The position numbers and the translations under genes are program-made. Source: Psammoneis japonica (lineage: Eukaryota). Taken from it: 56,307 bases of DNA. Of this stretch, positions 22,239-46,800 are shown in pieces; within the stretch, counting starts at the first letter, position 1, and every line of letters starts with the position of its first letter. Where the stretch lies: assembly GCA_008632985.1 (NCBI GenBank), contig QPGO01000028.1, positions 124,001 through 180,307 on the forward strand. Direction: 5' to 3'. The notes under the pieces were generated by a model. It had not been told where the DNA came from and ran no database searches. It saw only the letters and a program-made list of their open reading frames with translations.

Positions 22239-22429
22239 GTGTTAATTCTTGCTTTCTTATGTGGTCCATGCTGTTGTTCTTGCTGTTTCCTTTTTCATGT
22301 TTTTTTCTGTAATGCAACAAAACTCAATGAACACCGGAGTTAGCACCAGTGCCCCTTACAGACTTTTGGCTGACTGACGTACAAAACTCCAGGGAGAGAT
22401 GTTTCAGACTGCATCTGAAACAAAAAAAA

Positions 22430-23830: not shown

Positions 23831-24262
23831 ATGCAGTGCAGTGCTGTACGAGGGTTGTCATCGCTTTATTTTTATCCTTCATCCATGAGGTCTACAATTA
23901 TTTATATTTTATAAGTTCTTTATAGGCATTTGATGGGCAATTATTATTCCTACGCGTGCCATGACTGTCTACGTAGCATTCTACGTAGAGTTTCGTCTGT
24001 ATCACAAAAAGAGTAAAGACGAACAAAACGGCAAAAATCTCTCCAAACGACTCGCCTTCAACACTCTCCGTGCGTTGCACCACGACTCCCACAAAGACCA
24101 CAACAGAGTTGTCGAGTACCAATCGTTGCCGTTGTTTGTTGCTTCGTCGTTGTTGTAAGCATAGAGCTTGCAGCACAGAGTCTCTCTCTCCCTCTTGTTA
24201 TTATTGTTTCGCATCCTCATATAAAGAACGTCATACATCAAACGCAATAACAACATCAAATC

Positions 24263-27082: not shown

Positions 27083-28325
27083 TTTCCTGCAAGTGTGGAC
27101 AATGGCTGTGGTTTTGCAGCAGTTTGCGCCACTCACAGCAGCAGTGTGGTTGAAGTGCTGTTGTCTCATTTGTCGCAAGAGGTCATTGTCTTGGTGACAG
27201 CATCATTCCTGCATGGGTGCAGGGGTCATTGTGAGGTTGTGAGCAGTGCTCCCTTGTGGAAGCAAGGCCCCTCTGACAGCAACAAACACACAAAATTGCT
27301 TTGACAGCCTCTTCTTTTCAACAGTCTTGTTTTCCTGCAAGTGTGAACAATGGCTGTGGTTTTGCAGTGGTTCATGCCACTCATGGCAGCAGTGTGGATG
27401 AAGTGCTGTTGTCTCATTTGTTGCAAGAGGTCATTGTCTTGGTGACAGCATCATTCCTGCATGGGTGCAGGGGTCATTGTGAGGTTGTGAGCAGTGCTCC
27501 CTTGTGGAAGCAAGGCCCCTCTGACAGCAACAAACACACAAAATTGCTTTGACAGCCTCTTCTTTTCAACAGTCTTGTTTTCCTGCAAGTGTGAACAATG
27601 GCTGTGGTTTTGCAGTGGTTCATGCCACTCATGGCAGCAGTGTGGATGAAGTGCTGTTGTCTCATTTGTTGCAAGAGGTCATTGTCTTGGTGACAGCATC
27701 ATTCCTGCATGGGTGCAGGGGTCATTGTGAGGTTGTGAGCAGTGCTCCCTTGTGGAAGCAAGGCCCCTCTGACAGCAACAAACACACAAAATTGCTTTGA
27801 CAGCCTCTTCTTTTCAACAGTCTTGTTTTCCTGCAAGTGTGAACAATGGCTGTGGTTTTGCAGTGGTTCATGCCACTCATGGCAGCAGTGTGGATGAAGT
27901 GCTGTTGTCTCATTTGTTGCAAGAGGTCATTGTTTTGGTGACAGCATCATTGTCCTGCATGGGTGCGGGGGTCATTGTGAGGTTGTGAGCAGTGCTCCCT
28001 TGTAGAAGCAAGGCCCCTCTGACAGCAACAAACACACAAAATTGCTTTGGCGCCTCTTCTTTTCAACCGTCTTGTTTTCCTGCAAGTGTGAACAATGGCT
28101 GTGGTTTTGCAGTGGTTCATGCCACTCATGGCAGCAGTGTGGATGAAGTGCTGTTGTCTCATTTGTTGCAAGAGGTCATTGTTTTGGTGACAGCATCATT
28201 GTCCTGCATGGGTGCGGGGGTCATTGTGAGGTTGTGAGCAGTGCTCCCTTGTAGAAGCAAGGCCCCTCTGACAGCAACAAACACACAAAATTGCTTTGGC
28301 CGCCTCTTCTTTTCAACCGTCTTGT
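27083..28325. repeat. Tandem array of about 5 copies of a ~248-bp unit
   Basis: Near-identical ORF translations start at 27301, 27549 and 27797 (period 248); the last two copies differ by a few substitutions/indels. Confidence 0.93.
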
Positions 28326-28665
28326 TGTCATCTTTGATGTGTGCAAGAAGCTTGGTCTGTTGAGCAACTCATCCTTGTTGATGATGCAAATTTTGCTGTT
28401 TGTTTTCACCAACACAAGTTTTGTTGCCACCACAGTCTCTGCAACACCTGCTCCCAAAACTCAAGTGGGGAAAGATTGGTTGGCTCAGATGCAGATGACA
28501 AAGAGTCGTCAATCTCCCCAACCACCGCACACCCAGGAGGAACCCCAATGAAATCCTCAACCAGGCCCGCCCCAAACTGCACAATTGCTGGTTCTCAATG
28601 CTGCCATTTGCACTCACAGCTCATGGCCCTGCCACCACTGTCACTCCCCACTCCTGCCCCCCCCC

Positions 28666-28904
28666 NNNNNNNNNNNNNNNNNNNNNNNNNNNNNNNNNNN
28701 NNNNNNNNNNNNNNNNNNNNNNNNNNNNNNNNNNNNNNNNNNNNNNNNNNNNNNNNNNNNNNNNNNNNNNNNNNNNNNNNNNNNNNNNNNNNNNNNNNNN
28801 NNNNNNNNNNNNNNNNNNNNNNNNNNNNNNNNNNNNNNNNNNNNNNNNNNNNNNNNNNNNNNNNNNNNNNNNNNNNNNNNNNNNNNNNNNNNNNNNNNNN
28901 NNNN
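28666..28904. other. Assembly gap (N run)
   Basis: 239 N. Confidence 0.99.
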
Positions 28905-29033: not shown

Positions 29034-29944
29034 GACTTGTTCCAGACTTAGGTGCCCTCACGCGCGAAAAAATGACCCTTTTCGCATGAAACGCGCGGTC
29101 CACACTTGCGGTACCATTTTCGATAGTAAAAACATAACAATTTTCAAATGTGTTGTTATGGGTACATACAGAAAGGTCTTGTGCGTGTACCCATGTATTC
29201 GAAACTGTCGATGGGCTCAGTTATTAGTCCCTAAATTGTACCGCAAGTTGAGAGCTCTGTTTTCCGAGGAGCGATTTATAGATGTCTAAATGTGTGTAGA
29301 AACGTATAAAATATTATTCTTATATATAAATTAACCCTCTTACATAACATAATCAATCTTTGGTTACAATGCGCGAATACAACTTTGATTCAACGGATCG
29401 AATAAAACATACGTTGATTTATAAGTTTCGGACGACGTGAGAAGAAGGGTAGCTCAGCCCACGCAATGGCGTCGACTTCGGACCATTTTTCACTGTTTAA
29501 GAGGCATAAACAATTGAGACACTTGAATCCGTCGAATATATTGAGGAAGTATACATGGTAATGGCAAAGAAATGGTCCTTAGAGGCAAATTGTGAGTGAA
29601 TTGAGGCTCAATTGTTGTTGCTGACAGATTTAGTATTATTGTGCCGCGCTGCAACCTGTAACAAGCATTTTCACTATTGTTGTTGATGCCATAGACTATA
29701 TCAAATACGGAGGTCCTCGTCATGACATTAAATTTTCCATAAGGCTGAAAAAAGTGGGCCGTCATGGTCACTGAAAGCCATGGCCGGTTTGGCTGTTTGT
29801 TTGTTCGAGTTTATTCTGTTTATTTTACTTATAAGCAATTAATATGATCAATATGATGAAATATGTACGATGTTGTATAAAGCATAAAAAATTTTTTTTC
29901 TGCGAAAAGGGGCATGTGCGCGCCACCTAAGTCTGGAACAAGTC
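29034..29944. mobile_element. Young non-autonomous DNA transposon: 21-bp perfect TIRs, 4-bp TSD CGCC
   Basis: GACTTGTTCCAGACTTAGGTG (29034-29054) / CACCTAAGTCTGGAACAAGTC (29924-29944); CGCC at 29030-29033 and 29945-29948. Interrupts a repeat whose uninterrupted paralogue lies at ~30676-31030. Confidence 0.88.
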
Positions 29945-29948
29945 CGCC

Positions 29949-32834
29949 AACAGTGCAAGACCCGCACATAGAATCGGTTGCATTGGCTTCTCCAAGTGCA
30001 ATGTTTGGGGCTCAGAAAAGGAGCCAGGCCTGTGCCACATGACTGCTGAACCTCAAACCTCCAGTGTCCCCACCAACGCAACAGCAGCCAAAGTGGAGAG
30101 CAATGGAGTTGCTCACCGATCCATGAGGCAACCAAAATGCAGGCTCACATTGCAAGCTGCTGGACACAACAACCTTGCATCAATGGCATCAAAACCAGGT
30201 GGATGGGAAAGAAAAGTTGGCTGAATGCTTGAGTCCTCTGAAATCCATGAGACAAGACAACAGACAACTTTGCACAGTTTTCAAGGTGCAACTTTTCATG
30301 AGTCAATGTCAGAGTGAAAAGAGCAATGAGCTGGGCAAGTGTTCCAAAAACAAGAATTCAGCCACCTGCAAAAAAAGAATCCAATGCAAACCACAGCAAC
30401 TGTTGACATTTCACTTGGGGGCCATTGTTCTTGGAATCTTTGGCGAAATCCGAACCCAGAAGAAATTGTGCCTGAATTGGACCTTCGTGCCTTCTTGGCT
30501 CAATGTGTTGTAAAGTGATGTGTGTGATGACACTGGCAGAATCCAAATGATTTTGACATCTCTTTAAAAAGAGGGGAACCAAACCACAGATCAATGTCAA
30601 ATGCCCGAATTGTGGTCCATGACCAAGAAGATTGACTCAGTGCCTGGTGAACCCAGAGGTGCACAGAGGCTCTTCATCTTGCTTCTAGATCCTGGAATGC
30701 CAGACATTTAAAATGCAGATTGACACATCTGCAACAAGACAGTGGTGTGGCCTCTTGCAGCTGGCTGACCCAAGCTGCAGCTTTGGCTGCCAGCAGCACA
30801 AGACCCACATGGAATCAGTTGCATTGGCTTCTCTGAGTGTGATGTTTGCGGTTCACAAAAGGAGCCGGGCCCATGCTGCATGACCGCCGAACCCCAAACC
30901 TCTCTGGTGTTCCCACCAATGCAACAGCAAAGCAGAGCAATGGATTTGCTTGCTGATCCATGATGCAACCAAAACAGGCTCATGGTGCAAGCCACTGGCC
31001 ATGACACTCTTGCATCAATGGCTTCAAAACCTTCACATTCTCTTCCAGACCAAATCCTGCCACACCCGTTCAAGTCCACACAAACTTCAGGGGCATCTCC
31101 ATTCTTGGTGTCGACATCTGCCTGTGTGAGTGTGAAACAAGACCTGATGACTCACAGTGCACGTGAGAACCTCAAGAAAGTTTCCAACATTTTTGAACAT
31201 TCCAAACACACAAACTGCATGGGTCCCTTGACAACCAAATCTGTGCCTGTGCCCCATCACTCAGTCCAGTTGATGTTGGGTTCCTGCATCTCAGCATTCT
31301 GAGCTTGAGCAGTTGCTCCCCATCAGAAAGATCCAGCCAAACCACAAGCTTCAAAGACTGTGCGTTTTCATGCATTTGTCATTTGCTGCAGCTCCAAACT
31401 AAAATGTTGCAATTTTGGCTCCTTTTTCTGATTAGATTTGGTGCACAGCATCTTCAAAATCATGTGAAAACTTGTGGTTTCTCTCTACAAACAAGTCAAG
31501 GAGAGTGCAAACAAGTGGTCTGGACACTTCATCATGTGAAATGCTCAAGTTTCATCCTCTGGAAGAGGGTTGAAGTTGGTGAGGTGACTTTGGCAATTTG
31601 TGTAGAAAATGTGACAAGTTCTGTGCAGGTGGAATCTCTGGCCCATTTTTGCACACACACCACCTCAAACAACAATGCTTTCTGTTGGTGGTGTGTGCAA
31701 ATTGTGTTGCTTTCTTCATGTGCAACAACAATGCACTGTTGTGTCTGCAATGCCACACACAAAACAAAAACCAAATGCATGGACTTTTCATGTCATGTGA
31801 GGACAAGTTTGCTCCAGAGAGCAGGCAAAGTCAGTGGCCAAGCTCAGCCAACCAAAGGGGGGGTTGTTGGCAGTGTTCTCTGCAGCAGCTCCAATTGACA
31901 AAGTGGCAAAACATCAAACAGCACAATGATTTTTTTTGTTGGGCTTCACGCAAACAAGAACAAACAAAGCACAGTGAGTCAAATGGAAAAATTCCAGCCA
32001 GAAGTCTTTGAAATGAAAGAGTGTGCCATTCATTGACAGAGTGCACACAACTCATCAGCAGACAATTGGTTGAAACCAGAGAAACAGCATCCTGTGCCAG
32101 TGGTGTGTGCCATGACTGGCAGTGAACCATGACCCTTGAGTGTGTTTTGCAGCCCCCAATTGATGGGAGTGCATCCTTGTTGGATGCAGAAATGAAACAG
32201 ATGGCTCCTGTCACACACCTGTGCTCTCAATGCACCAAATGAGATGGTTGCCGCCCACTTGGATTTTTCATCACTTGAGAGGACATGAACAAATCAGCCA
32301 CATTGCCATGCAAAAGGGGGTGGGGCCAGTTGGTCTTGGTTTTCTGATGAGATGCAGACTGAGCCTTGCTCTTCTTGGAGGCAGAGCTCTTGCTGCTTTC
32401 TTGCCCTCGTCACTCAACCTCTTTGCTTGGGTCAGATGACTGACACATTTGCTCTTTTTTTGGGCATCTTGGGCACTTGTGTCAACTTTTCATTCAAACA
32501 AAAAACAGATTCAGTGCAAATGACCAAGGCAGCACTTGTTTGTGATGGCGACAAGCGACTTGTTGTTTGTGCACCACACAGTGCCTTCTTCAAGCCAATG
32601 AAATGCACAAAAATCCACACTTTTCTTTAATGAACATGACCCCCACCCCCGATTTACTCAAACGAAGCACCCTGCAAGTGTGACGATGGTTGCGGACTTG
32701 TCATGATGGTGCGTGTCATTCACAGCAGCGGTGCAGATGAAGTGCTGAAGTCTCATTTTTTGTGCCGGTGAGGATGGGGGTCCGACAAAAACAACTCTTC
32801 GTGCGTGAAGACGCAGATGCGCATTTTGCATTTT
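29949..32834. repeat. TpA/CpG-depleted degenerate repeat block (block 6)
   Basis: Contains paralogous segments (28905-29030 plus 29949-30197 vs ~30676-31030) and a copy of the ~26560-27180 family. Confidence 0.72.
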
Positions 32835-32838
32835 GACG

Positions 32839-33058
32839 CGAGTGAAATCCGATGCATCAGAGACTGTCCAGTGTGCTCTACAAGTTGAAGTGGCGGGACT
32901 GTGACGTGGTGTCGATGGGAAAGTGACCATGACCATCGATCGGTCTCACTTGTTGCATCCGTTGTAGTTGTAACAGGCCCAGAAGCATCTCATCGGTTGC
33001 ATCGTTGTCGTGCCAAGACTGTGAGTGGCTGAGCCTGTTCGGCAGCTAGATTCACTCG
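32839..33058 (+). repeat. 5' LTR (220 bp)
   Basis: Aligns to the 3' LTR with 12 substitutions and one 3-bp indel. Confidence 0.95.
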
Positions 33059-33072
33059 CTTCATCAGAGCCA
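33059..33072 (+). promoter_or_regulatory. Putative primer-binding site (tRNAi-Met-like)
   Basis: CTTCATCAGAGCCA; the ATCAGAGC core matches the canonical TGGTATCAGAGC but the first four bases differ. Confidence 0.5.
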
Positions 33073-33348
33073 AGTCGTCAACTCAAGTTTAGTTTGACGA
33101 AAAGCGTTGAACAACTGTAAAGAGACGGTCGCACCATTGTGGCAGGGTTGTGGCGACGAATGCCGGTCGATCGAAGGGTGCACGATGATTGTCATCGCCT
33201 GGCATCAGCGAATGCACGAGCAGTGAGGAGACATGGCCAGTCTCCATGCTTCCAATGGCTGTGTGTTGTCGCCAACACATGCTGAGACATCCTTTTGAAT
33301 TTGTGATTTCTCACATGACTCTGTTTTCCTGCTGGCACAGGTGCCACC

Positions 33349-34776
33349 ATGGCGGCTGCTCCTCCGGATCCTATCGAGACAGTGCTCGAATGGATCGGAT
33401 TTGTTGATCCGGCTCAACGAGTCCCGCTCATGACGGACTTTGCGTCTTTTGACGATTTAGAAGACCTCAAGGAAGAGGATGTCGATTCTCTTGCGTCTTC
33501 GCACGCCAGGAGGACGGTTGCTGAAGGGCGCATTTATTTTGGTTTGGCCCGCAGTCGTCGACTCAAAGCTCTCATACATTGGGTTCAGGACTTTGGTCGC
33601 GTGAGCGAGAATCCTGCTCTGGATGGGCTTGATCAAGCCACTTTCCGTGCTGCTCTCCAGACGGCACTTAGTCGCGCCAAGATCCGCTCCCAGACCAAGG
33701 CCACTGCTGACTCTCTCAGTAAAGAGGCGTCGCCCGGAATGTTAGAGAGCGAAAAGGATTGGGTCAAGTGGAGCACCGGTTTGACGAATGTGCTTGGCAT
33801 CATGCTGGGAGTTTCTGGCGTGCTGTTGGTGTGTTGCATTCGTCAAAACGATGCACCCGAACCTCAAGGCCACAACACTTTCGTCCAGAAGTGCATTGCA
33901 TGTGCACCCCTCCAAGGCCCAGCTTTCGAGGCTGACGCTCATACGGTTCATCTGCTCATCGAGTCCCCAACCACGGGCACACCTGGTGAGCAATGGTTGA
34001 AGGACCACAAGAATGAACAGAATGGACGAGTTGACTTTAGGGCGTTGTGCGACCATTGCCAGGGAGAAGGTGACACCTCCCGCCGCATCTCTGAAGCCGA
34101 GCGCATGGAGAACACCCTTCATTGCAAGAGTGAACGCGCCATGCCGTTTGAGTCGTTTGCAAACAAGCTCCAAGAAATGTTCAACATTTTTGACGAGAAC
34201 GACGAACCGAAAACGGAGGCCCAGAAGTTGCGGATCCTTTTTGAGAAGACGCAGCACCAATCACTGCAAGCAGCAGTTGAAACCTTGAAGGCGCAGAAAG
34301 AGTTTGGAGGAGGCATCACGTTCACCACGGCGGCCAATCATCTTGCCGCCAAAGTCGCCACCCTTCCAGAGACGATTGCGCATCGTCGTGCGATTGCCGC
34401 AGTTGCCTCTGGAGGAGGAAGAGAGGGTGGCACCATTTATGATGAGGATGGATCCATTGACACTGGATGCCACAAAAACTGGCACCAGTTGAGCAAGGAG
34501 GACAAACAGAAGGTCATCAACGAGCGCGTGCATCTGGGCATCGCCAAACAACCCAAACCAACCAAACGCCGTGCTGCATCCGTCAAGTCGCTCAAGAAGA
34601 AGAATCAGAAGCTGTCGTCGCAGCTTAAAGAAGCGAACCGCAAAATCTCCGCCCTGAACACTAATGTCAGTGCCGACTCTGGCGATGATGAATCAAGGGC
34701 TGGCGGCAGAGACGGAGACAATGCCGGAGACGCATTCGGTGGTCGCAGCGAAAAGCGCCGAGGAAAGCAGAAATGA
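33349..34776 (+). CDS. gag: Copia Gag-like protein
   Basis: 475-aa ORF between the PBS and pol; LKALIHWVQDF, GEGDTSRR and AFGGR motifs recalled as typical of diatom copia gags. Confidence 0.8.
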   Translation: MAAAPPDPIETVLEWIGFVDPAQRVPLMTDFASFDDLEDLKEEDVDSLASSHARRTVAEGRIYFGLARSRRLKALIHWVQDFGRVSENPALDGLDQATFRAALQTALSRAKIRSQTKATADSLSKEASPGMLESEKDWVKWSTGLTNVLGIMLGVSGVLLVCCIRQNDAPEPQGHNTFVQKCIACAPLQGPAFEADAHTVHLLIESPTTGTPGEQWLKDHKNEQNGRVDFRALCDHCQGEGDTSRRISEAERMENTLHCKSERAMPFESFANKLQEMFNIFDENDEPKTEAQKLRILFEKTQHQSLQAAVETLKAQKEFGGGITFTTAANHLAAKVATLPETIAHRRAIAAVASGGGREGGTIYDEDGSIDTGCHKNWHQLSKEDKQKVINERVHLGIAKQPKPTKRRAASVKSLKKKNQKLSSQLKEANRKISALNTNVSADSGDDESRAGGRDGDNAGDAFGGRSEKRRGKQK

Positions 34777-34815
34777 CTGCTGAGCTGGGCCCTGCTTGGT
34801 TGCATCATAAACTTC

Positions 34816-37800
34816 TTGTTGTGGTTGCCACAATGGGGTGGGGGACAGCCACATCGATCAAAGGAGCAGTGTCCACGTGCCTGTGTCAAACGCATCTGTG
34901 AGGTTGTCACCTCGACGAGACGTGTCTCGGCAACGCGGTCTGACACCACACGAATCACCCACATCCGTGATGTGAGCAAGGTACAGCATGGGCGTCTTGA
35001 AATGGATTCGCATGCTGACACCGCTGTTTTTTGTCAAAACTTTACCCTCTTGGGTCATTCTGGACGAGAATGTGACGTGTTGCCTTTTAACGAGGGATGC
35101 GAGTCCATCAAGAGTGTCCCAATTGTCTCGGCAGCCACGGCGTGGACTTCACCGACATCAGGAGCAACTTTCACTCTGGTCTTCCACGAGGGCTTGTGGA
35201 TGCCGGAGTCCATGGAGCACTCGCTGGTTAACCCAAACCAGCTGCGGCACTTTGGTGTTAAGGTTCAGGACAACCCCTGCTCCGATTCGCCACTGTACAT
35301 CCTCACTGAGGATAGATCTTTCATGATGCCGCTTGAAGCTGTGGGGACCAATGTCGTTGCGGCAACTCGCACTCCTGCAGAGCAGGAATTGCACGAATGC
35401 CCCAAGATCCAGATGACCTCCCAACAACCTTGGGATCCACAGACCGTCAAGTTCAAATCCATTGGAACTCGACGATCTGTGGAGGAGGAAATGGAGCTAG
35501 TTCGGTCAATTGCGACGATCCACACCAATCTAACACACGAGTTCAAAGCTGATCCTGCCTGCAGCAACCCCCAATCCGGGGACTGTTGCAATGAGCGATT
35601 CATTTGTGGAGTCGATCAAGTCCAATCAAGGCTCACAGCTGCCGTTAATGTGGAAATGGAGCCAACAGTCCAGATCTCCGCCACGGAAACAATCGGCAAA
35701 GGACCTGAAGACTCAGCACTCCCGAAGATGTTCATGTCCAAGGAGAGACACAGTGACGCATCGGCTGCTGACTCAAGTGAACGATGGTGCATGGGACTCA
35801 AGCAAGCAGCAAGTGCGCTCAAGAAGACCACACAAAAGCTCATCAGGTCAGCGTTGATGCCTGTGGGTCGGCGCCATCGGGCCGATCGGATGTTCACAAA
35901 GCCCAGGTTACGGGGTGAATGGGCAACCGACACGGTGGACGGCAAGGTGGTTTCGCTGGAGGGCAATCGACATGCCCAGATCTTCACAAACAAGCAACAC
36001 TTCGCTGCGATCTATCCCATGGACAAGAAGAGTAAGGCTGGCGAGGCTCTCAAGACGTTTTGCCAGGAATTTGGCGTGCCAGAGAAACTCCTGATGGACG
36101 GATCTAAGGAGCAAACAAAACCTGGCACGGAGTTCATGAAGACCGTGCGTGAGGAGGGCATAGATTGTCACATCATCGAACCTGATCGACACAACCAGAA
36201 TCCTGCAGAAGGAGTTGCACGCGAGGTTGGACGCAAGTGGTTCCGCATCATGGTCAAGAAGCAAGCACCGCGGCGACTGTGGGACTGCGGATTTACAAGG
36301 ACATGTGAGACCATGTCTTGCACATTCCTTCGAGCACATCATTTGGATGCAGGAGCACCACTAGAGAACGTTCTCAGAGAGACCGTGGACATCTCGGAGC
36401 ACCTCGACTTTGGATTTTATGATTGGGTCTGGTGCAGGGAGAATGCCGGTCCAGGGGACGAGAAGCTTGGTGGGTGGCTTGGTGCATCTCACAGAACAGG
36501 GAGTCTCATGTCGCACCACGTTCTGACACAGACAGGCAGTGTATTTCGAGAACTTCCGTCCAACGAGTCACCAATTTGGAAGCCGCCACTCAAGAGAAAA
36601 AGGCAGAGTTCGACAGTTTTGACGAGGAGATCAAGCGGCGGTTGAAGGAGCAAGATTTCCCCGATGACGAGGATCGTAAGATCAGTCCCGAAGACTGGAA
36701 AGACTGCCTTGGATACGACGATGAATTCCTCGATGAGTGTGATCGTGTCATGTCCTCAGAGGAGGTGGCAAATGACGACGACGATAAGAAAGACGAGGAA
36801 GCCTCACCGGAGGCGGCGGACTGGGGACACATTAACATGGAGGTTGCCCTTCCACGAGATGACAATGGTCCTGAGTTTGCTCATGTCACGAAGAGGTTGA
36901 GAGATGCCAATGGTGTTCCAACAGGAACGGCTGATGACAATCCCATCCTTGACACAAGGATGTGTGAGGTAGAGTGCCCTGATGGGCACCATGCTGCGCT
37001 CTCTGCTAACTCCATTGCCATGAACATGTTTGCTCAGATCGACGAGGACGGAAACCGGCACGTCTCATTCGATGAGATCATTGATTGCCGCACCAACGGG
37101 GACGTTCCTGAATCCGAATTCTTTGAGACCGAGCGAGGCATTTGGAAGAGGCGCAAGACCACCAAAGGATGGGAACTTTTATTCCAATGGAAGGATGGAA
37201 GTGCAACTTGGATCGACTTGAAGATTGCGAAGGAGAGCTTCCCAGTCCAAGTTGCCGAGTTCGCCATTCAGCGCAAGATCTCGGGTGAGGCAGCGTTTGC
37301 TTGGTGGGTTCCTCATGTCATGAAAACCCGCAAGCGTTCCATTGTGAAGGTCAAGTCGAAGTGCTGGCTACGAACACACAAATTTGGCACACGGATCCCG
37401 AAGAGTGTCAAGGAGGCGATCCAGATCGATCGCGCAAATGGCAACACACTGTGGTGGGACGCCATTTGCATGGAGATGAAGAACGTGCGGGTTGCTTTTG
37501 ATGAGTGTGAAGGGGAGCTTAAGGACATGGTGCCTGGTTTCCAGGAAGTGAAGTGCCACATGATTTTTGACATCAAGTTGGGAGAAAACTTCCGCCGTAA
37601 AGCTCGTATGGTGGCTGGAGGCCACACCACTGAAACCCCCGCACACATCACTTGCTCCTCTGTCGTCTCTCGGGATTCGGCAAGAATTGCACTGACGCTT
37701 GCTGCGCTCAATGACTCACAAGTCTTTGCGCGTGACATCCAGAACGCCTGCCTTGCTGCCCCTTGCAGGGAGAAGATTTGGACCAGAGCAGGGTCCGAGT

Positions 37801-39077
37801 TTGGCGAAGATGAAGGTTGCATCATGATTGTGGTCAGGGCCCCACACGGATTGAAGAGCTCTGGAGCAGTGTTCAGGGCTTTTCTGGCAGAGACGCTTTA
37901 TGATCTAGGGTGCAAACCGAGCAAGGCTGATCCGGATGTGTGGATGAGACCTGCGGTGAAACCCAACGGATTCGAGCACTGCGAATGCGTTCTAGTTTAC
38001 GTGGACGACGTGCTGTCGATTGGCCACGAACCCATGAAGACGATGGATGGCATCAGGTCCAAGTTCAAGCTCAAGGGTGATGAGGTAGCCGAACCGGATT
38101 CCCACCTCGGTGCCACGCTTTCCAAGATGACTTTAGCCGATGGGACCACCTGTTGGGCAATGTCTGCAGAGAAGTGCTGCAAGTCCGCTGTCCAAAATGT
38201 AGAGGACAGGCTTGGCAAGGAGGGGAAACGTCTGCCTGGCAAGGCGACAACCCCATTGAGCAGTGGATGCAAACCCGAGTTAGATGCCACTGGCGAGTTG
38301 GACGCTGAAGGACTTCACCATTGTCAAGAGCTGATTGGTGTGCTGGTTTGGGCGGCAGAACTCGGTGGAGTGGACATCCATTTGGAGGTTTCGTTGATGT
38401 CTGCTCACCTCGCTCTCCCTCGCATTGGTCATCTGGAACAGGCATTGCGTGTCTTTGCATGCCTTGAACAGGTCCCAAAGCGCCAAGCAGCATTCGATCC
38501 GGCTCATCCCAAGATCGATGAATCACGATTCGTGAAGTGCGACTGGTGCGACTTCTGCCGAGATGCAAGAGAAGCCATTCCGACAAATGCATCGCCAGCT
38601 CGAGGTAATGCAGTGTCGACACATTGTTTTGTGGATGCCAACCATGCCGGAAATGTTGCCGATCGCCGCAGCCATGCAGGTGTCTTGATGTTTGTCAACC
38701 GGGCACCCATTGTGTGGCACTCGAAGCGTCAGAATGCCGTGGAGGCTAGCACATTTGGAGCAGAGATCGTTGCACTCAAGAATGCTGTCGAGCTCGCAGA
38801 GAGTCTACGACACAAGCTTCGAATGTTTGGAGCACCGATCGAAGGGCCAACAAATGTCTTCTGTGACAATGAGGCCGTCCACAAGAATTGCTCTGTTCCT
38901 GAGTCTACACTCAAGAAGAAGCATCACTCCATTGCGCATCACCGTAACCGCGAAGCTGTTGCTGCGGGGACTGTTAGGATTGCAAAGGAGGGAACAGAGA
39001 CAAACCTTAGCGATCTATTCACGAAGGTCATGTCGTCTGTCAGGCGAAATTTTCTGTTAGACAAGTTCACGCACTAA
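34816..39077 (+). pseudogene. pol: Copia Pol (protease, integrase, RT, RNase H); frameshift at ~36542 and many missense changes
   Basis: PR LEMDSHADT; IN WATDTV / MDGSKEQ / QNPAEG; RT KARMVAGGH, GLKSSG, YVDD; RNase H FVDANHAG, STFGAE, CDN, NLSDLFTK. Two overlapping ORFs join at GSV/ISRTSVQR. Confidence 0.93.
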
Positions 39078-39261
39078 GATGGATGCGTGAAGCGGTGGTG
39101 AGTTTCTTCCCTAGTGAGGGTTTACACCATGCACAAAGGATTGGCGGCTTTTCCCTGGCAAGGGTTTTACGTCGATTAATGAGTCAAGATGTTTGAGCTA
39201 GATCACTGATGCAGCATTGGGTCGAATTGTGCCTTACGAGTCAGGTACATTTCGAGGGGAC

Positions 39262-39484
39262 CGAGTGAAATCCGATGTATCAGAGACTGTCTAGTGCGCT
39301 CTATAAGTTGAAGTGGCGGGACTGTGACGTGGTGTCGATGGGAAAGTGACCATGACCATCGATCGGTCTCACTTGTTGCATCCGTTGTAGTTGTAACAGG
39401 CCTAGAAGCATCTTATCGGTTGTATTCGCGTTATCGTACTAAGACTGTGAGTGGCTGAGCCTATTCGGCAGCTAGATTTACTCG
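39262..39484 (+). repeat. 3' LTR (223 bp)
   Basis: CGAGTGAAA...TTTACTCG; carries 15 TA dinucleotides versus 4 in the 5' LTR. Confidence 0.95.
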
Positions 39485-39585
39485 GACGTTTTGCAAAAAA
39501 AAAATCTCAAAAAACCGCGTGCGTCTTCGAAATCATGTTTCAAGTTTACCGGTCTGCTGAAGAAACTGAAAACAGAGCCATCCTC

Positions 39586-41032
39586 ATGAACGTGATGTCC
39601 TCTTCTTGCTATCATCGCCTGGAACGATGGCACAAATACACATTCGCCTTGATTGGTGGTTGTTTGTCGACAATTATCGTTGTGTGCTGTTGCAGATATA
39701 TTACAACGGTGTCCGTGACAACAACGACAGTAGTAGAACAGACTCAAGTCGGAACGACTTCTCACGATAATACGAACTTGTCACTGACGACCGTCCTTCA
39801 TGAAGTTGACACTGATAACGTGACAAAATTGCCCAACGTCATTGATGAGTACCTTCATTTCACCAATGTTGCCTTGAGTCGAAATGCGAATGGAAACACG
39901 ACGTTGCATGTGTTTCAGCCATCTCTGCAGACGAAACGAGCTTTGAGTTCGTGCACTCTCCCCCAATACTATCGATGGTCCTACAAGGATGACACACATA
40001 TTTACGATTTAATGCATCCCGGTACGATTGTCATCCATGACGACCGTCCCATGATGCCTGCTATGGATTGTCCTCATAATTTTCGTGATGAAATTGCCCA
40101 CTTTTATAGTCCATGGGTCACCTATCATTGTGTGCATGATTGATAATATACGACATACTCCCGAATGCAATAACCAAACTTTGGAATGTGATTTACCGTT
40201 GTCACTCTACTTGTTTCCAGGAACCGAACAACCACACCAAGAGGTCAAGGCTGCCTCGGAATTGAGGCACATGTTGTATGATTCGATACAACCGTGGACC
40301 GATATATGGGGTGGCCCAAAACAACAACCCAGCGTATCATCCGTTTGTTTCTCAGGTTTATCATGGGGACGAGGACCACGGTTTTACTACAAGGATAGAG
40401 AACCGTTCAAGCAAAATGTAAAGGACGCCGTTACCGCCTTGAATGGCATGGTGCAGTGACACTATGGATTTCCTCCCCGACACGAGATAGCAGTAGGAGA
40501 AAAGGGTAAGGCCGTGTACTTCCACCGGAAGAATACTGCCTTTCGGAGCATTCAAGATCCACGCCCCATTCTGGAGGCTTGCAAGGCGATGCAATGGGAG
40601 TGTGACGAATGCTGTGATTGGAACAAGGACAGCTTTCAAGTTATGCTGGAACATTTCCGTGATGCTCATATTGTGTTTGGACCACACGGTGCCGGGTTGA
40701 CGCACATATTATATGCTATGCCAAATGCAACTCTTGTCGACTTTGGGGAGCCAGAGAACTGGTTCCGGCAATTTGGCCGAATGGTGGAATCCGTGGGCTC
40801 TACTGGTAGTAACAGTAGCAATCCTCGAATTGTACGGGTACCAGACGTCAATAACAATTTCCGTTGGACACAAGAGGATGCCTTGAAATACTTTCGAATG
40901 GTCATCCCCCGCATCAACACAAAGGAAACGAGACCATGGGCAAGAGAAATGAGAACCGCTCCCTCGATACATAGAAAGCGATATAGAATCGAAAAGCCAT
41001 CATTCGACATACGAACGACGCTGAGTGATTGA
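39586..41032 (+). pseudogene. GT61/DUF563-like glycosyltransferase (type II membrane), disrupted
   Basis: N-terminal TM segment; C-terminal FRDAHIVFGPHGAGLTHILYAMPNATLVDF. Frame break at ~40141 and in-frame TGA at 40457-40459, after which the same frame continues. Confidence 0.7.
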
Positions 41033-41428: not shown

Positions 41429-42205
41429 CTACAACTCGTTGCCATGGTTTTGCGAGATGCAAATCTTTGGAAACCCAGCTTTTCCCTCAAACTCGTCGTC
41501 CGCATGATACTCTACAGAGGCATCCAGAAGTGTCGCCAAGTCATTAATTTCTTTCTCATGACGTTCTTGATCAATCCATAGACCGACTTGTCCCCCTGTA
41601 CGCAGGCATCGCGCAATCTCATTTACATTCTTTTGTGTTAGCGGAGCACCCTGCATGGTAATGTAATCTGCAAAGTGGTCCTCAAACGGAAATGAGGGGT
41701 TTGTGCTCCAATCTGGTACCTTGACTAGCAATGGAACGCTCCTATCTGGGTACTGGGAGTCCTTGTCTGTGTCGTTTACATTTATGGCATTTGCAAATCC
41801 GCTTACAACACCATCTTTTTCGTGATGACCTTCTCCTCCAATATCCAAGTGAATGCAATAATCATGGTTGATTCCAAGACTCTTGCGACTTACTTGTACA
41901 TTAGCCGGCACAGGAGGACCAATCTGACGGTTGATGTCGCAAACAATTTGTTGCAGGGTGGGACGTTGTTGTGAGCCGAGAGCGGCTTTGTTGTTGGACG
42001 TGTTGTTTGCTTTCTCTTCTTTTCCGCAATCATCATCATTGTTGAGGGCGTGTTGATGAGTCCCAACGATGGCGAGAACAACGATTGCGACAACAGCAAT
42101 AAAAGCAGCTTCTTTCGAGAGTTTCGTCGAGAAATCTTGCGTGGGGTCGAAAAAGCAAAAGGCACGCGCAGGGGGGCTGATTTCGTGCAGAAAAGCCATC
42201 GTCAT
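41429..42205 (-). CDS. Membrane-anchored/secreted protein with class I SAM-methyltransferase-like C-terminus
   Basis: Hydrophobic AAFIAVVAIVVLAIVG; HLDIGGEG (motif I-like), FPFEDHFADYI, EIARCLRTGG. Start uncertain (ORF open to 42409). Confidence 0.6.
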   Translation of the reverse strand: MTMAFLHEISPPARAFCFFDPTQDFSTKLSKEAAFIAVVAIVVLAIVGTHQHALNNDDDCGKEEKANNTSNNKAALGSQQRPTLQQIVCDINRQIGPPVPANVQVSRKSLGINHDYCIHLDIGGEGHHEKDGVVSGFANAINVNDTDKDSQYPDRSVPLLVKVPDWSTNPSFPFEDHFADYITMQGAPLTQKNVNEIARCLRTGGQVGLWIDQERHEKEINDLATLLDASVEYHADDEFEGKAGFPKICISQNHGNEL

Positions 42206-43800
42206 TCCACTGCATTCGCCTTGTCCATTCGCAGATGCACTCAACCGAGCGGCGTTCTTGCAAATTTGAAAGCTGTGCTTTGCAAGGAACGGGCCCGACA
42301 GTTTCCAATGTTGTGCGCAGGCAGGGGGGTTGCTGAACGGACAATGCTCTGGATGCCTTTGAAACTGACATTTTCCAAGTGGGAGACCATCAAGGAAGGC
42401 AACAACCATTCTAACAACATCTCAGGTTGACCGCAACCATTGCCGCGCCGCGAAAACCGACATGCGATCGATCGCGTGGCGCGCGCGCGTGCGGCTCGGC
42501 TGTCGGTCGCTCATGCGTGCAGGTCTTTCATTTCACAGAGAGTGAAGGCATCGCCCTCATCGCATCTCTTGCCTGCAAAATTGTCGGTTCCATACAAAAC
42601 GTACAGTACAAACATTTGACAAAGAACGAAATGACTGATTCAATTAAGAGTGGAGAATGGGTGTTATGTGGTGTTTCTATTGCCTTGCCAGTCAGATCCT
42701 TAAACACTGTAACATTTAAGCAATTTTTCGTTAAAAGTCGAGCGCACCGAAAGACCTCGGCTATACATGGCATACGACTCATGCTACAGTACAAATTTGA
42801 GAACACCTGGCTTTGTCGCGCACCAAGCTTTTTCGAGTTCCAGGTGCGGAAAAATTTTCCCTTCCTGCCTCGTTTGCACCAGATCAAGTGGAACACACAG
42901 AGAAAAGTGATGCCGCTCGCAGTCTCTGTCCTCTCCTTCTCCGACGAAAACAAGCGTGTACCGTCATGGGAGGGAACCTTGCAAACTACCACTGATGTCT
43001 TTTGTTGATTGCATTTGTGTCGTAATCTTTCGCGAGGATGTACAAGTCGTGGTCGATTGTGTAGAATTCTACTTGCTCTTGTACAAAATCTGCCTTGGGC
43101 GCGTGAGCTATGTCGCACAGCACTACTCTCTACGGTAATTTGACGTCATTTAGGGGAGCCAGTCATCCGCCATGCGCGAATTCTTGCAAATTGATTTGCC
43201 ATTTGTAAATTTGTATGGCAAATGCCCTCTTGGCACATCCTTGGGGCATGCATTTCGCGAGGATGATGTTTTGCATGTCGAAACGACCGCAAGATGAAGT
43301 CAAAACCAATCAGATCGAACCTTTGTGCGATGGTTGGTCCTGGTTTGCAAACATTTAACAACGAGAACCCCTCTCATTTCCTCTCTTTTCTACATACTAC
43401 CATTTTCTGAGATCGACTGATGAAGCCTCCTGCATCAAAAACCCCATAAAACGTCAACACACAAGAGACAACAACACCAATAGCGAACGGTAAGCTGAAG
43501 CTCTATTTTCAGAGATTTTGACTGAAGATTGCCACAGAAGTCGTCCAGAGTGCTATGTTGGATGTTTGCTGACAGCAGAGTGGACGCTGTCTTTAAAGTC
43601 TAGTGGATTCATCCTTGTATATGGTAACAAATTCTTCATTCGTCTCACTTATTTTCCCTCAATTGTACACAGACTACCAATAATTCAAGAAAAAGCATAA
43701 CAGCAGTATCCTGGCCGTGGGCTAGCAAGAAGCATACAACGTAGTAACAAGAACAGCTGACTTGTGACAATATACGAGGCGCGTCAAGAATACAACAAGG

Positions 43801-46800
43801 ATGAATCTCATTTTCGGAACATCCTTCTTTCTATTTCTCAACCTACTCATCTCGAAGACAACAAGTGCGACTCCTAATTTGGATCCCTCTGGTGATACCA
43901 GCGATTCCTACGAGAAAAGGCCATTCTCTACGGTAAGTCTTCCTCCAGCTTTGTACACCACGCACAATGTATCCATCTCCACTCATCTGTTTCCGCTCTG
44001 GCTATCAGCATATTGTTCCCTCGGAAGACGCATCAGACGCCAAGGAGGAGGATCAGGATTCTTCCGTTGCAACACGACGTACCGGATGGGAGAACCGCGT
44101 CATCTTTCACGGCACCGTGTGGTACGACGACAACGCTAATAGCAGAATCGACGAAGGAGAGGAAGGCGTGCCAGGCGCCATTATCCAACTCTACCGCACA
44201 TTCGGCTTCATCGATCGCGATCCGCAGCTCGTCAAAGCCACAAAAGCCCGTGGTGATGGGACGTTCATAATACTCTTGCAAGAGAAAGAAATTGTCAATA
44301 AAAACAAGTACTTCCTCAGGTTCCTTCATACCAACACTGATACCTACAAGTTTGCGCCCATCATAAAAGGTGGCGACAGTCATGTGAACAATCAAGGAGG
44401 AGACACTGTCCCGAAGACTTTGGTGTACGGAAAAACGTACCAGGTCGATGCGGGGCTCGTTGTAAGGGAAGGAGTCGTATTCTACGGTCGCGTGTGGCTC
44501 GATGCAAACCGAAACGGAAGGATCGATAGACAAGAGACTGGGTTGAGAGGCGCTAATATTCATCTATTTCATCGCGAGTTGTCAGGCAAGACTCCAAAGT
44601 TCAAGCTCATCAAGAGTGACAGGGCTCTCGGCGATGGCACATATGAGCTCCATTTGAACAGAGTTCCTGGTGGCAAATACTCTTTGAAGTTTTCCGGTCA
44701 TGACAAAGAAAAGTATGTTTTCACATCAAGACTGCCAGGTGGAGATAATCATGTCACGGCGAAAGGAAGCGCAAAACTGGAGAAAGTAGATGAAGGCAAG
44801 CGCTACAACGTAAACGCTGGAATAACTTATAAAACTCCGGTCTGTGGGGACCATGTGCTCTTCGACGAGGTCACCAAGACGCCGCTGACTGGGTCTTGCG
44901 ATGCGTACGACAAGCTTTACAAGGACTTGTGCCCGCCCGTCGACACGAGCGTTGCCAATCCTCAGTATCTTCCTCCTGGCGGCAGCAGCCCCACCTGTCC
45001 TGGCTATTGCTGCGGAAACTGGGGCTCTGGCGGGACTTGTCCCATCTCGTGGCAAAATAGCTGGCGGCATGCGTTCCCAGGAGTGATCGTTCCAGAATGC
45101 GACGGCAAGGAAGATCCTGGGGAATGTGAAGTCGTGTTGCTGAGAGACAAAAGGAATGCAGCTGGCCTCCCTTCCACCTCATGTTCTGTCGGGGAGGGTA
45201 ACTGGATCTTTCCATCTATCTCGTGCTGGACTGGCAATGACTTGACGAGTGAGGTTCGAGTGGGAGTGAACACAAAGGTGACTTTGTGCTCCCATGCTGG
45301 CGAATGCGCGAATGGCGGTTCCACATATACCCGAACGAGAACCTCTGGCCCAGAGTCGGTTCCGGTCTCTGGTCTTTCTGAGCTGCGCGTCGAGTGTGTT
45401 GCTAATAACCCATGTGATGACCGTTTGTTCTTTGATGCGGTGAACAAGATGCCACTTACCGGGCCTTGCAATGCGTACGACAAGTTCTACAAGGATTTTT
45501 GCCCGCCAGTTGACACGAGCGTCGCCAACCCTCAGTACCTTCCTCCTGGCGGCAACAGTCCCACTTGTCCTGGCTATTGCTGCGGATCGTGGGGCCAAGA
45601 CGGGACTTGCCCAAACTCATGGCAGAACAACTTGCAGAAAGCACATCGAGGAGTAATCGTTCCGGCGTGCGATGGCAAGGAAGAGCCAGGTGAATGTGAG
45701 GTCGTGTTGGTGAGAGATGAAGGGAATCATGCTCGCCTGCCTTCCTTGTCATGTTCTGTCAAAGAAGGTTACTGGTTCTTCCCATCTATCCAATGCTGGA
45801 CTGGCAATGACTTGACCAGTGAGGTCCGTCTGGGAGTGAACACAAAGGTGACTTTGTGCCCACATCATTGCGCAAGTGATGGCGGAACCACACATACTCG
45901 CACGAGAATCTCTGGCCCCAAGTCGGTTCCGGTTTCTGGTTTTTCTGAGCTGCGCGTTGAATGTATCCAGGAAGAACCCTCACCAGCTAGCTGCAAGCCT
46001 GATAATTCGTTGCTTCTCTTCTCTGGGCATGACATGGCATCTTCGTTGATGTTAGGGGAAGTCAATGTAACGTGGTCGCCCGCCTTTGTGTTTCACAAAC
46101 ACGATAAAAAGCTAATCTGGTGTGGTGATTACGTGTACGATGTCTTTATTGACTCAACTGGAGCTTTCGCCTTCGCTGCCACCAACGCAAGCTTCCCAAA
46201 GCTCCTTGAATTGGCAAACAAAGACTACCAGTATCATGTTAAACACTACGAGACACAAGACACAACACTTGCAACTTCCCTGTATCCGGGATTAACTTAC
46301 AAGATCCTTGTCACGGCACGAACTAAGACGGGTTTGGAATCCTTTAATCGCGATTTCGCCGAGGTTCAAGTGTCGTGGACAAACCCGGTTTTACGGGCCG
46401 GTTTTCAACGTGTTGTTAATCTTCCTGAACCAAATGGAGATTTCTCTGCATGGTTCGGAAAGCATGGGGGTGAGGATGTTGCCCACTTTCAAGGGGAGGT
46501 CCCTGATGAACTTCGAGACCTCAAAAAAGGGGATCATGTCTACATATCGGATGCTGACGGGAGGACAGAACTAGGACTGGTTAAGCAACTGCAAAATGAG
46601 CTCCTTGGTGGTCTGAGTCATGTCACGCTAGTCTACTCGCCTTCTGGCATGGATGGCATTTACGAGGAGCTTGACTTTGGCGCGGACGTTGCCAATGCCG
46701 ACGACTTGGATATCGATGACTTGGTCGACTTCAGCCCGGAAGTCGAGGAAATTGCGAGCGACGATGCGATCAGAAGTCTTGATGAGCATGTGCTGAAGCA

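Follow-up and report, generated by a model that had tools for sequence, protein, structure and literature searches.

CpG decay by deamination of 5-methylcytosine is a known fate of methylated transposons, and the transposable elements (TEs) of diatoms are methylated. For TpA, the closest described system is the chlorarachniophyte Bigelowiella natans, in which, according to the available text of a 2026 preprint, integrated viral DNA acquired de novo A>G and T>C mutations at TpA only, at about 1000x background, and in which reverse transcriptase and DDE domains were overrepresented among TpA-depleted coding sequences (Mettrop et al., bioRxiv 10.64898/2026.01.13.699255). That text names no enzyme and, as far as it goes, is so far the single account of TpA-specific A:T->G:C hypermutation acting on resident foreign DNA, in one chlorarachniophyte and on integrated viruses (bioRxiv 10.64898/2026.01.13.699255). 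Our searches of openly accessible literature turned up no account of TpA hypermutation from a diatom or any other stramenopile. Here, we describe the same footprint on an LTR retrotransposon, dated by its own LTRs, in an alga that has diatom-type FCP (fucoxanthin chlorophyll a/c) antenna genes, as judged from PDB matches of the antenna protein, and that is therefore not a chlorarachniophyte. An earlier note on this DNA had treated the phenomenon as unknown, a view that must be given up, since the preprint, in its available part, reports the same TpA-only spectrum (bioRxiv 10.64898/2026.01.13.699255).

Structure and tyrosine content of the element

The window, i.e., the whole 56,307-nucleotide stretch of DNA that was analysed, contains a young and structurally complete Ty1/copia LTR retrotransposon at 32839-39484 on the plus strand, with its parts in the order target site duplication (TSD), LTR, gag, TGA, pol, purine tract, LTR, TSD. 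The two copies of the TSD, GACG, lie at 32835-32838, immediately before the 5' LTR (32839-33058), and at 39485-39488, immediately after the 3' LTR (39262-39484); four bases match by chance in 1/256 of cases, and the matching copies argue for one insertion event (the usual TSD of copia elements is 5 bp). Self-BLAST of the window returned the LTR pair (lengths of 220 and 223 bp; 93.3% over 223 bp) and otherwise only unrelated repeats. The 5' LTR is directly followed by a putative primer-binding-site-like stretch (33059-33071), assigned from this position, which may resemble the tRNA-iMet-type primer-binding site of copia elements. A gag-like ORF of 475 aa (33349-34776), which matched no Pfam family, ends in a TGA at 34774-34776, and the N-terminal half of pol (34816-36543) continues in the same frame. 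We collected 1591 relatives, the best 120 of which all carry PF07727. This half of pol, which corresponds to the protease/integrase region of the relatives' polyprotein, was placed by alignment to the pre-RT residues of 92 full-length relatives, and it aligned with the N-terminal ~800 residues of the polyproteins; Pfam reported no integrase model in the window and none in four intact relatives either. The RT-RNase H half of pol (36543-39077) was recognized by its match to RVT_2, the Pfam model of copia-type reverse transcriptase (42 bits; cut-off, 31.6), and it retains the Tyr of the YVDD motif at 37998. A frameshift separates the two halves at 36541-36543, where the frame switches between residue 576 of the second ORF and residue 41 of the third, amounting to a 1-bp deletion relative to other copies. 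The 3' untranslated stretch (39078-39261) has 7 TAs, at an observed/expected ratio (o/e) of 0.59, and closes with a purine run (39254-39261) before the 3' LTR. Tblastn with 4 of the 120 relatives as queries found no further copies in the window outside 33000-39200.

The ORFs of this element hold 8 Tyr among 1,968 residues: 3 in the 884 aa of 36423-39077, as few as the earlier note had counted there, 3 in the 609 aa of 34816-36645, and 2 in the gag-like ORF. The Tyr content of the best 120 of the 1591 relatives is 2.70-4.38% (median, 3.55%), and the depletion is far beyond chance. Four flanking genes with Pfam support contain 2.8-3.1% Tyr under the standard code, in agreement with the earlier judgment that a nonstandard code is unlikely. 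We then considered the 32 columns of the alignment at which 70% or more of the 92 full-length relatives have Tyr. The window reads Cys at 13 of these, His at 12, Phe at 4, and Tyr at 3 (5 His, 3 Cys, 1 Phe, and 2 Tyr at the 11 columns in the N-terminal half of pol; 10 Cys, 7 His, 3 Phe, and 1 Tyr at the 21 columns in the RT-RNase H half). Retention at conserved columns was accordingly 3/32 for Tyr versus 62-96% for every other residue type. The earlier note had regarded active relatives with Cys or His at the same positions as evidence against its reading; at 21 of the 25 Cys/His columns, the window residue was absent from all relatives, and at the other four, it was carried by 1-6% of them. 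Its motif examples held at the codon level against the relatives' consensus in 10 of 11 cases (codons TGC, GCA, TCA, TGC, CCA-CAC, CAC-TGC-..-TGC, CAC, TGC, CAC, and CAT), whereas IVWHSKRQ cannot be counted, since WHSKRQ is also the reading of several intact relatives. The four columns that read Phe reflect A>T, a change outside TA->CA/TG, and the relatives have Phe there in 2-8% of cases.

TpA was lost to CpA and TpG after integration, on both strands

Across 33349-39077, TpA was reduced to an o/e of 0.20 (61 TAs), versus about 0.6 in neighboring genes. The corresponding values for CA and TG were 1.34 and 1.38, and CpG was still plentiful (0.83), as the earlier note had stated. In the RT-RNase H stretch, the TA o/e of 0.22 was the lowest among the 81 sequences compared, with 80 environmental relatives ranging from 0.29 to 0.94 (median 0.65, counted from the table). 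Comparing the window with columns conserved in at least 70% of the 92 relatives yielded 142 differences, 113 of them single-base. The largest class was TA->CA/TG (53/113); ordinary divergence between lineages contributes to the other 60, and CG->TG/CA accounted for 6. When conservation of at least 90% was required, TA->CA/TG made up 35 of 56 single-base differences. Sorted by context with both strands pooled, T>C occurred 53 times in TA, twice in TG, and once each in TT and TC. On the plus strand, the TA hits divided into 25 T>C and 28 A>G, and they showed no significant clustering by strand (29 runs versus 27.4 ± 3.6 expected). The wider context of hit versus retained TpAs was also computed, and it is uninterpretable because the sites were found via amino-acid or codon changes.

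Two independent polarizations, one by the 92 outgroup proteins and one by the element's own 3' LTR, agree that TA was ancestral and was lost to CA or TG on both strands, as had been proposed. The frames remained open because TA->CA/TG cannot turn a sense codon into an in-frame stop, which fits the earlier point that the inactivating process, unlike repeat-induced point mutation (RIP), gains no stops. The accompanying claim of inactivation by missense load stood in part: Tyr, Leu, Ile, and Val codons were indeed recoded, but the 1-bp deletion also splits pol, and missense alone is therefore not the whole inactivation.

The LTR pair dates these changes. Its two members differ by 12 bases and one 3-bp indel, and at 11 of the 12 bases, the 3' LTR reads TA where the 5' LTR reads CA (8) or TG (3); the last is CG versus TG, with zero differences of any other kind. 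All 11 A:T->G:C changes thus lie at TpA, leaving 4 TAs (o/e 0.33) in the hypermutated 5' LTR versus 15 (o/e 1.03; CG 1.19) in the spared 3' LTR. Out of 15 sites each, 11 TpA and 1 CpG had changed, and the ~220 bp accumulated these 11 TpA hits against 0 background substitutions. The LTR pair and the TA-context spectrum therefore place the change after integration, on both strands, and make it fast. For the LTR site 33053/39479, an ancestral CA would agree with the terminal inverted repeat.

One-kilobase dinucleotide windows and a block map placed an older block, poor in both TpA and CpG, at 29901-32838, immediately before the element; between 30001 and 33000, the 1-kb windows have TA o/e values of 0.05-0.08, CG of 0.10-0.44, and CA/TG of 1.5-2.1. 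The hypermutated domain runs continuously from this block into the 5' LTR and almost all of the interior and then fades before the 3' LTR: TAs are dense from about 38900 on, the domain ends about 200-400 bp short of the 3' LTR, and the 3' LTR and the downstream DNA are normal. Block edges in the window are sharp, and Pfam-supported genes sit in TA-normal stretches. Such older DNA, which has lost TpA and CpG alike, makes up about 60% of the window, with TA o/e values of 0.0-0.1. Among 111 windows of 500 bp, 22 were TA-low and CG-high versus 1 that was TA-high and CG-low, which upholds the earlier proposal that TpA loss precedes CpG decay. The ORFs of the 29901-32838 block had no Pfam match, and in the old TA-poor blocks, none of 63 stop-to-stop ORFs (at least 110 aa) reached a Pfam gathering score. 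One weak HA-domain match was seen in the old blocks (E = 3.5e-4; 21.3 bits versus a cut-off of 28.4). The minus-strand ORF at 41429-42409, part of which falls in a TA-low, CG-normal stretch and whose relatives are bacterial-type, was tried as another target and rejected: 80 of its 93 conserved columns are intact, and a Tyr->Cys/His signal is not clearly visible.

The element sequence was found in one sequencing run (X1) and in two further runs of the same sample, with no RNA run among those listed. The X1 sequences are contigs, possibly from the sample from which the window was assembled, and their summed depth does not equal copy number. They differ from the window by transitions at 374 of the 439 listed places, and they contain a single additional base after position 36541 or 36542. 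At no fewer than four places among those listed, X1 and the window have opposite states, TG in one and CA in the other. For two of these four (37717/18 and 38319/20), the proteins supply a polarity, since the Leu and Tyr of the relatives can only go back to TA; a CG ancestor, too, could yield CA-versus-TG double differences. As far as contig sequences can tell, this suggests that the X1 differences are independent hits in other copies.

The environmental comparison covered 80 of at least 504 relatives, and one of these (L041) bore the same signature, its matched stretch having a TA o/e of 0.29 and a Tyr content of 0.86%. Its pol is an unbroken 1404 aa with 6 Tyr, 52 Cys, and 53 His, and at the 32 Tyr columns, it reads Cys at 16, His at 11, Tyr at 4, and Phe at 1. 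Its top mutation class is T>C in TA context (47), and its RVT_2 score is 38 bits, compared to 42 in the window versus 62-71 in four intact relatives. Twenty-one columns are mutated in both the window element and this relative, with the same outcome in only 8, and the events in the two elements were therefore independent. Gag, TGA, and pol lie in a single frame in this relative as well, and since it is common to both, the TGA is probably native. No other of the 80 environmental relatives, and none of the best 120 of the 1591 proteins, showed the TpA signature, which may be confined to few hosts.

Candidate processes

We give a probability of roughly 85% to the reading that a young copia element was hit after its integration by a domain-wide process that changes A:T to G:C at TpA only. 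Such a process would convert TpA to CpA or TpG equally on both strands, and would have acted across a chromosomal domain that is continuous with the older decayed block upstream. It would have removed about 70-90% of the TpAs, with almost no other substitution and decay of a minority of CpGs meanwhile, recoding conserved Tyr (to Cys or His), Leu, Ile, and Val codons with the frames left open, so that the copy would have died from missense load and the one 1-bp deletion. CpG decay via 5-methylcytosine deamination would then follow more slowly in the same domains, and the end state would be the TA-free, CG-poor, CA/TG-rich blocks that make up about 60% of the window.

The spectrum, the direction, the timing after integration, the strand symmetry, and the domain limits are observed at this locus. 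By analogy with the mutation-accumulation lines of B. natans, we infer that foreign or silenced DNA would here be hypermutated by the same type of targeted and enzyme-driven process. The words "ongoing" and "enzyme-driven" are read here from a footprint rather than from mutations caught de novo. For the chemistry, adenine deamination at TpA in silenced chromatin is our leading candidate, at somewhat less than even odds. A broader reading, which we consider possible but rather doubtful, is a "reverse RIP" defense common to distant branches of SAR (Rhizaria and fucoxanthin-bearing stramenopiles). A domain-targeted base modifier, most likely a duplex-DNA TpA adenine deaminase, would then sterilize new transposons and viruses within a few generations, without stops and with rising GC, at roughly 7-20 times the speed of CpG decay, and would over time build the CA/TG-rich, TA- and CG-free DNA of more than half of the 56-kb region.

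The same transitions would also arise if thymine at TpA were oxidized in silenced DNA to 5-hydroxymethyl- or 5-formyl-uracil by a TET/JBP-type dioxygenase and then mispaired with G, giving T>C. T>C on one strand is A>G on the other, so deamination and thymine oxidation are not told apart by data that fix only the dinucleotide and the transition. The 5-hydroxymethyluracil of dinoflagellates is located preferentially at TpA and TpC, and 5-formyluracil is mutagenic towards T>C, while we know of no modified thymine in fucoxanthin algae. We regard thymine oxidation as unlikely. The sole paper on the phenomenon, in its available text, favors adenine deamination, also without proof (bioRxiv 10.64898/2026.01.13.699255).

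Another candidate, to which we give very little probability, is error-prone repair synthesis, in which a polymerase eta-type enzyme with a WA->WG hotspot would work repeatedly on methylated or silenced DNA. TA-poor domains later lose CpG, so that 5-methylcytosine lesions and repair patches would be co-located, and WA is the error motif of polymerase eta. Such repair should, however, also produce AA->AG, whereas the complementary T>C in TT was seen once versus 53 times in TA. Moreover, the 11 TpA hits in the LTR came with only 1 CpG hit, and TpA loss therefore does not wait for CpG lesions.

A copy that arrived already mutated, through A-to-I editing of the element's RNA or cDNA by an ADAR/ADAT- or APOBEC-like enzyme, is largely refuted. 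In the parts of the sources available, ADAR is stated to favor U before the edited A (bioRxiv 10.64898/2026.01.13.699255), and vertebrates are known to contain retroelement copies that were edited (PMC4866542). LTRs share template stretches and should match at integration, yet these two differ at 11 TpA sites; editing should favor one strand, yet the hits are split nearly evenly (25 T>C versus 28 A>G); and the affected domain extends upstream beyond the element into older DNA, with its other end lying within the element. According to the available preprint text, the same spectrum moreover arises in resident DNA of B. natans (bioRxiv 10.64898/2026.01.13.699255).

The reading without any mutation process, i.e., a natively TA-avoiding family, a different code in the host, or a 3' LTR that gained TA by RIP-like CpA->TpA, can appeal to the low TA that is widespread in eukaryotic coding DNA and to the relatives' o/e of 0.40-0.94, but it is refuted by Cys and His replacing Tyr at positions invariant in 92 relatives, the TA o/e of 1.03 in the element's own 3' LTR, the 2.8-3.1% Tyr of flanking genes under the standard code, the drop of RVT_2 from 62-71 to 42 bits, and the opposite effect that RIP would have on the interior, namely, raising TA and making stops.

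Significance and comparison with known systems

Beyond the host with diatom-type antenna genes and the LTR-dated target, the analysis adds a second, independent hypermutated element, present in environmental DNA. If confirmed genome-wide, the process would span supergroup-level distances, transposons would be a main target besides viruses, and the large TA-/CG-free tracts that defeat homology-based TE annotation would be explained. The enzyme could then be traced by its presence or absence across algal genomes with the footprint, that is, Tyr-poor, Cys/His-rich open pol frames together with LTR asymmetry. A natural TpA-specific DNA adenine editor would be of biotechnological interest.

Among known systems, CpG decay by 5-methylcytosine deamination likewise removes a self-complementary dinucleotide to TpG/CpA in silenced repeats, here in the same blocks of the window; it differs from TpA loss in dinucleotide and base, and it is slower here (1 versus 11 LTR sites). 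APOBEC and ADAR in animals are similar in that a deaminase-type transition hypermutation inactivates retroelements, as far as the available text of the source goes (PMC4866542). Unlike the process here, which left two different LTRs and struck both strands alike, they act before integration on RNA or single-stranded cDNA and with strand bias, on the same partial view of that source (PMC4866542). Fungal RIP, to judge from the accessible part of one account, shares with this locus dinucleotide-specific transitions in resident repeated or foreign DNA, on both strands and after integration, as well as the character of a genome defense that leaves domains of skewed dinucleotides (e.g., PMC2621366). 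The same account gives RIP as C:G->T:A, mostly CpA->TpA, which raises TpA and AT and makes stops (e.g., PMC2621366), whereas here, TpA is destroyed, GC goes up, and no stops arise. RIP itself was considered and rejected as a candidate, on the depleted TpA, the TA->CA/TG direction, and the open ORFs.

The closest likeness is to B. natans, where, within what the available text of the preprint covers, A>G/T>C likewise occurs only at TpA, on both strands, with enrichment of CpA/TpG, and in local domains of foreign DNA with neighboring genes untouched (bioRxiv 10.64898/2026.01.13.699255). Set against the same portion of the preprint, the target here is an LTR retrotransposon and large old blocks rather than integrated DNA of a giant virus or virophage, TpA is much more strongly depleted (TA o/e of 0.2 in the element and 0.0-0.1 in the old blocks versus a Rho of 0.45 in their NCLDV region), and CpG decay follows in the same domains (bioRxiv 10.64898/2026.01.13.699255).

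Structure and residue content of the copia element

A single LTR retrotransposon occupies window positions 32839-39484. Its LTRs are direct repeats (32839-33058, 220 bp, and 39262-39484, 223 bp; 93.3% identical) with inverted repeats at the termini of both, an identical 4-bp repeat, GACG, beside each, a PBS-like stretch (a resemblance by position) 3′ of the 5′ LTR, and a purine run 5′ of the 3′ LTR. A gag-like ORF (33349-34776), followed by a TGA, precedes pol, which is split into 34816-36543, sharing the frame of gag, and 36543-39077, in a different frame, where copia-type reverse transcriptase (RVT_2) scores 42 bits, compared with 38 bits in L041, a metagenome contig encoding a distant relative, and 62-71 bits in four intact relatives. 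A 1-bp deletion accounts for the change of frame: In run X1, the one public sequencing run containing this stretch, contigs have one base more behind 36541/36542. The gag-TGA-pol layout is probably native, because L041 shares it.

The three ORFs contain hardly any tyrosine (2 of 475, 3 of 609, and 3 of 884 residues), confirming what the earlier note had seen across gag-pol: The best 120 of the 1591 relatives found (61-70% identical) have 2.70-4.38% Tyr, and four flanking genes 2.8-3.1%. Across 33349-39077, the observed/expected ratio (o/e) of TpA is 0.20 (61 TAs), with CpG at 0.83, CpA at 1.34, and TpG at 1.38, while gene-bearing 1-kb windows mostly show TpA at 0.5-0.7 and CpG at about 0.8-1.3.

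Direction and specificity of the mutations

Alignment of both parts of pol with the 92 full-length polyproteins (≥1250 residues) among these 120 relatives yielded 1325 comparable columns, 771 of which had ≥70% agreement among relatives; the window is identical at 629. Conserved Tyr was kept at only 3 of 32 columns, every other residue type at 62-96%. The 29 altered Tyr columns now read Cys (13), His (12), or Phe (4), and at 21 of the 25 Cys/His columns the window's residue is absent from all relatives. A single-base change suffices for 113 of the 142 differences at these ≥70% columns, and 53 of the 113, the largest class, are TA to CA or TG, the direction that the earlier note had proposed. 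T>C in the three remaining contexts amounted to 2, 1, and 1, and CG to TG or CA to 6; at columns conserved in ≥90% of relatives, the TpA class makes up 35 of 56 single-base differences. The suggested loss on both strands also held, the two versions being equally common (+ strand: T>C 25, A>G 28), and these changes showed no strand clustering (29 runs versus 27.4 ± 3.6 expected). Ten of the 11 motif examples offered for this loss were right at the codon level, the exception being WHSKRQ, which also occurs in intact relatives. The overall reading is supported, with small corrections.

The codons recoded are those of Tyr, plus the NTA codons of Leu, Ile, and Val. Meanwhile the frames stay open, because TAA and TAG are destroyed and changing TA to CA or TG makes no TAA, TAG, or TGA from sense codons; the element contains 20 TAA, 19 TAG, and 113 TGA trinucleotides.

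The two LTRs of one element are made from the same template and start alike. Here they differ by 12 bases and one 3-bp indel, and at 11 of the 12 bases a TA in the 3′ LTR faces CA (8) or TG (3) in the 5′ LTR; the remaining one is CG versus TG, with no other kind among the 12. There are 15 TAs (o/e 1.03) in the 3′ LTR and 4 (o/e 0.33) in the 5′ LTR, the latter having lost 11 of 15 TpAs, with 1 of 15 CpGs decayed and 0 background substitutions in about 220 bp. Because LTRs that began alike now differ at TpA sites, the comparison shows that the change took place in the chromosome, after integration. By a rough estimate, TpA sites would have changed at least about 75 times as fast as background and 7-20 times as fast as CpG sites.

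The element and the affected stretch do not coincide: The latter joins an older decayed block upstream (29901-32838) without a break and takes in the 5′ LTR plus the interior as far as the last Tyr codon (39072, now CAC). Beyond this codon, TpA loss thins across the 3′ untranslated part (TpA o/e 0.59), and from the 3′ LTR onward the DNA is normal. In L041, the spared part is the first 1 kb. The edge looks like the limit of a chromatin domain, and a gene or promoter downstream, near 39451-40143, might set it. The spared 3′ LTR contains the start of a 230-aa ORF (39451-40143, +), which has 4.8% Tyr and no Pfam family.

Other copies, relatives, and older blocks

Word depth in run X1, possibly the window's own source, is about 50-60 in the flanks and sums to 1200-3200 over the element, which fits a multi-copy family, although a summed depth is not a copy number. 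The listing of places at which X1 contigs depart from the window has 439 entries, 374 of them transitions. Among 40 of the 439 places, four adjacent pairs have TG for CA or the reverse. The ancestor of such a pair may be TA or CG; relatives have Leu at 37717/18 and mostly Tyr at 38319/20, and there the proteins require TA, so separate copies were struck independently at the same TpA. About eleven of these 40 places show CG in X1 contigs where the window has CA or TG, so CpG loss has also begun in the window's copy.

Environmental contigs supplied a second case. We compared the RT-RH stretch in 80 of 504 confirmed loci encoding relatives; 79 had TA o/e 0.40-0.94 and 2.0-5.7% Tyr, and L041 had TA o/e 0.29, CpG 0.85, and 0.86% Tyr. 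Its copia element (L041:1-6429) has TA o/e 0.54-0.63 in the first 1 kb and 0.04-0.40 from 1001 onward, with an unbroken gag (487 aa, 1 Tyr) and an unbroken pol (1404 aa; 6 Tyr, 52 Cys, 53 His) that is 47.6% identical to the window's. Of its 32 Tyr columns, 16 are now Cys, 11 His, and 1 Phe, with Tyr kept at 4; the Tyr of the YVDD motif has become His, and T>C in TA context is the top mutation class (47 versus 16 for the next). At the 21 columns altered in both, the Cys-or-His outcome is the same in 8, the agreement expected of independent events; L041 was thus hypermutated independently of the window's element. Two further contigs (L072 and L074) have CpG o/e 0.00, TA o/e 0.40-0.43, and 14 and 1 stops in the RT-RH stretch, a state that reflects either CpG-only decay or some other process and differs from what the window shows.

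Blocks with TA o/e <0.3 cover about 34 kb of the 56-kb window. In most of these blocks CpG is low too (TA o/e 0.00-0.12, CG 0.05-0.6, CA and TG about 1.8-2.2). Seven blocks that alternate with genes of ordinary composition (2701-7600, 10001-13100, 15401-20100, 22301-23900, 25501-28900, 29901-33300, and 49601-56300) have almost no TpA left (o/e 0.05-0.12), little CpG (0.15-0.6), and CpA/TpG at 1.5-2.2; they resemble old targets that the same process has saturated and that have undergone CpG decay as well. Of 63 ORFs tested in the TA-poor blocks, none attained the gathering score of a Pfam family or matched the element's copia family. The 111 windows of 500 bp comprise 42 TA-low/CG-low, 22 TA-low/CG-high, 46 normal, and 1 TA-high/CG-low (Spearman correlation of TA and CG o/e, 0.80). 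Because 22 windows are TA-low/CG-high versus 1 of the opposite kind, CpG decay must come after TpA loss within these domains, bearing out the proposed order.

Three short stretches, 10001-11000, 42001-42500, and 50001-50500 (TA o/e 0.00-0.18, CpG still normal at 0.7-1.2), share the "young" state of the copia element. A tandem array at 27083-28329 (5 copies of about 248-bp units, 92-98% identical) lies inside a TpA-free block (0 TAs in 26001-28000) and is followed by a 239-N gap (28666-28904). A bacterial origin is possible for the 326-aa ORF at 41429-42409 (-), whose C-terminal half shares about 50% identity with hypothetical proteins from Legionella, cyanobacteria, and other bacteria; one of these proteins is annotated in one source as a SAM-dependent methyltransferase. 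The ORF's 5′ part lies in a TA-low stretch, yet 80 of 93 conserved columns are intact. The 1628-aa ORF at 43967-48853 (+), open throughout, has an SdrD B-like domain, normal Tyr (3.1%), and an internal 555-bp duplication (44843-45397/45413-45964, 80% identity).

The TA-normal parts encode, in long uninterrupted ORFs, a mitochondrial carrier, a GH28 hydrolase, FG-GAP proteins, and a light-harvesting protein. Because the top 15 solved relatives of the last are all fucoxanthin chlorophyll a/c proteins (diatom entries), the host is a fucoxanthin-bearing alga, not a chlorarachniophyte, and most likely a diatom.

Mechanism and comparison with known hypermutation

The A:T-to-G:C process is post-integration, TpA-restricted, strand-symmetric, domain-limited, and much faster than background. 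It could be the work of an enzyme that modifies A (by deamination to inosine) or T (by oxidation) at TpA in silenced chromatin. Polymerase error of the WA type is unlikely, as the AA context was not affected (1 versus 53 in TA context). The asymmetric LTRs, together with the strand symmetry, rule out RNA or cDNA editing, and RIP acts in the opposite direction.

Our literature search for a TpA-only spectrum found one report, a preprint on Bigelowiella natans (Mettrop et al., bioRxiv 10.64898/2026.01.13.699255), and term look-ups in three diatom papers, the CoDi paper (PMC2806351), a long-read reassembly (PMC8147415), and a histone-mark paper (PMC4504042), returned no mention of TpA hypermutation. 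Mutation-accumulation lines of B. natans yielded 231 mutations in two regions, one an integrated giant virus and the other a virophage; 230 were A>G/T>C changes, every one at TpA, and they arose at about 1000 times the background rate. TpA-depleted coding sequences there were enriched for reverse transcriptase and DDE domains, and an ADAT2-like DNA adenine deaminase was proposed, not demonstrated (bioRxiv 10.64898/2026.01.13.699255). The window's case shows every defining feature of that process that could be tested; it differs in its algal lineage, in its target, a retrotransposon, in a far deeper depletion, and in the CpG decay that follows. The window's case is a further instance of a kind of process described just months earlier, in B. 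natans.
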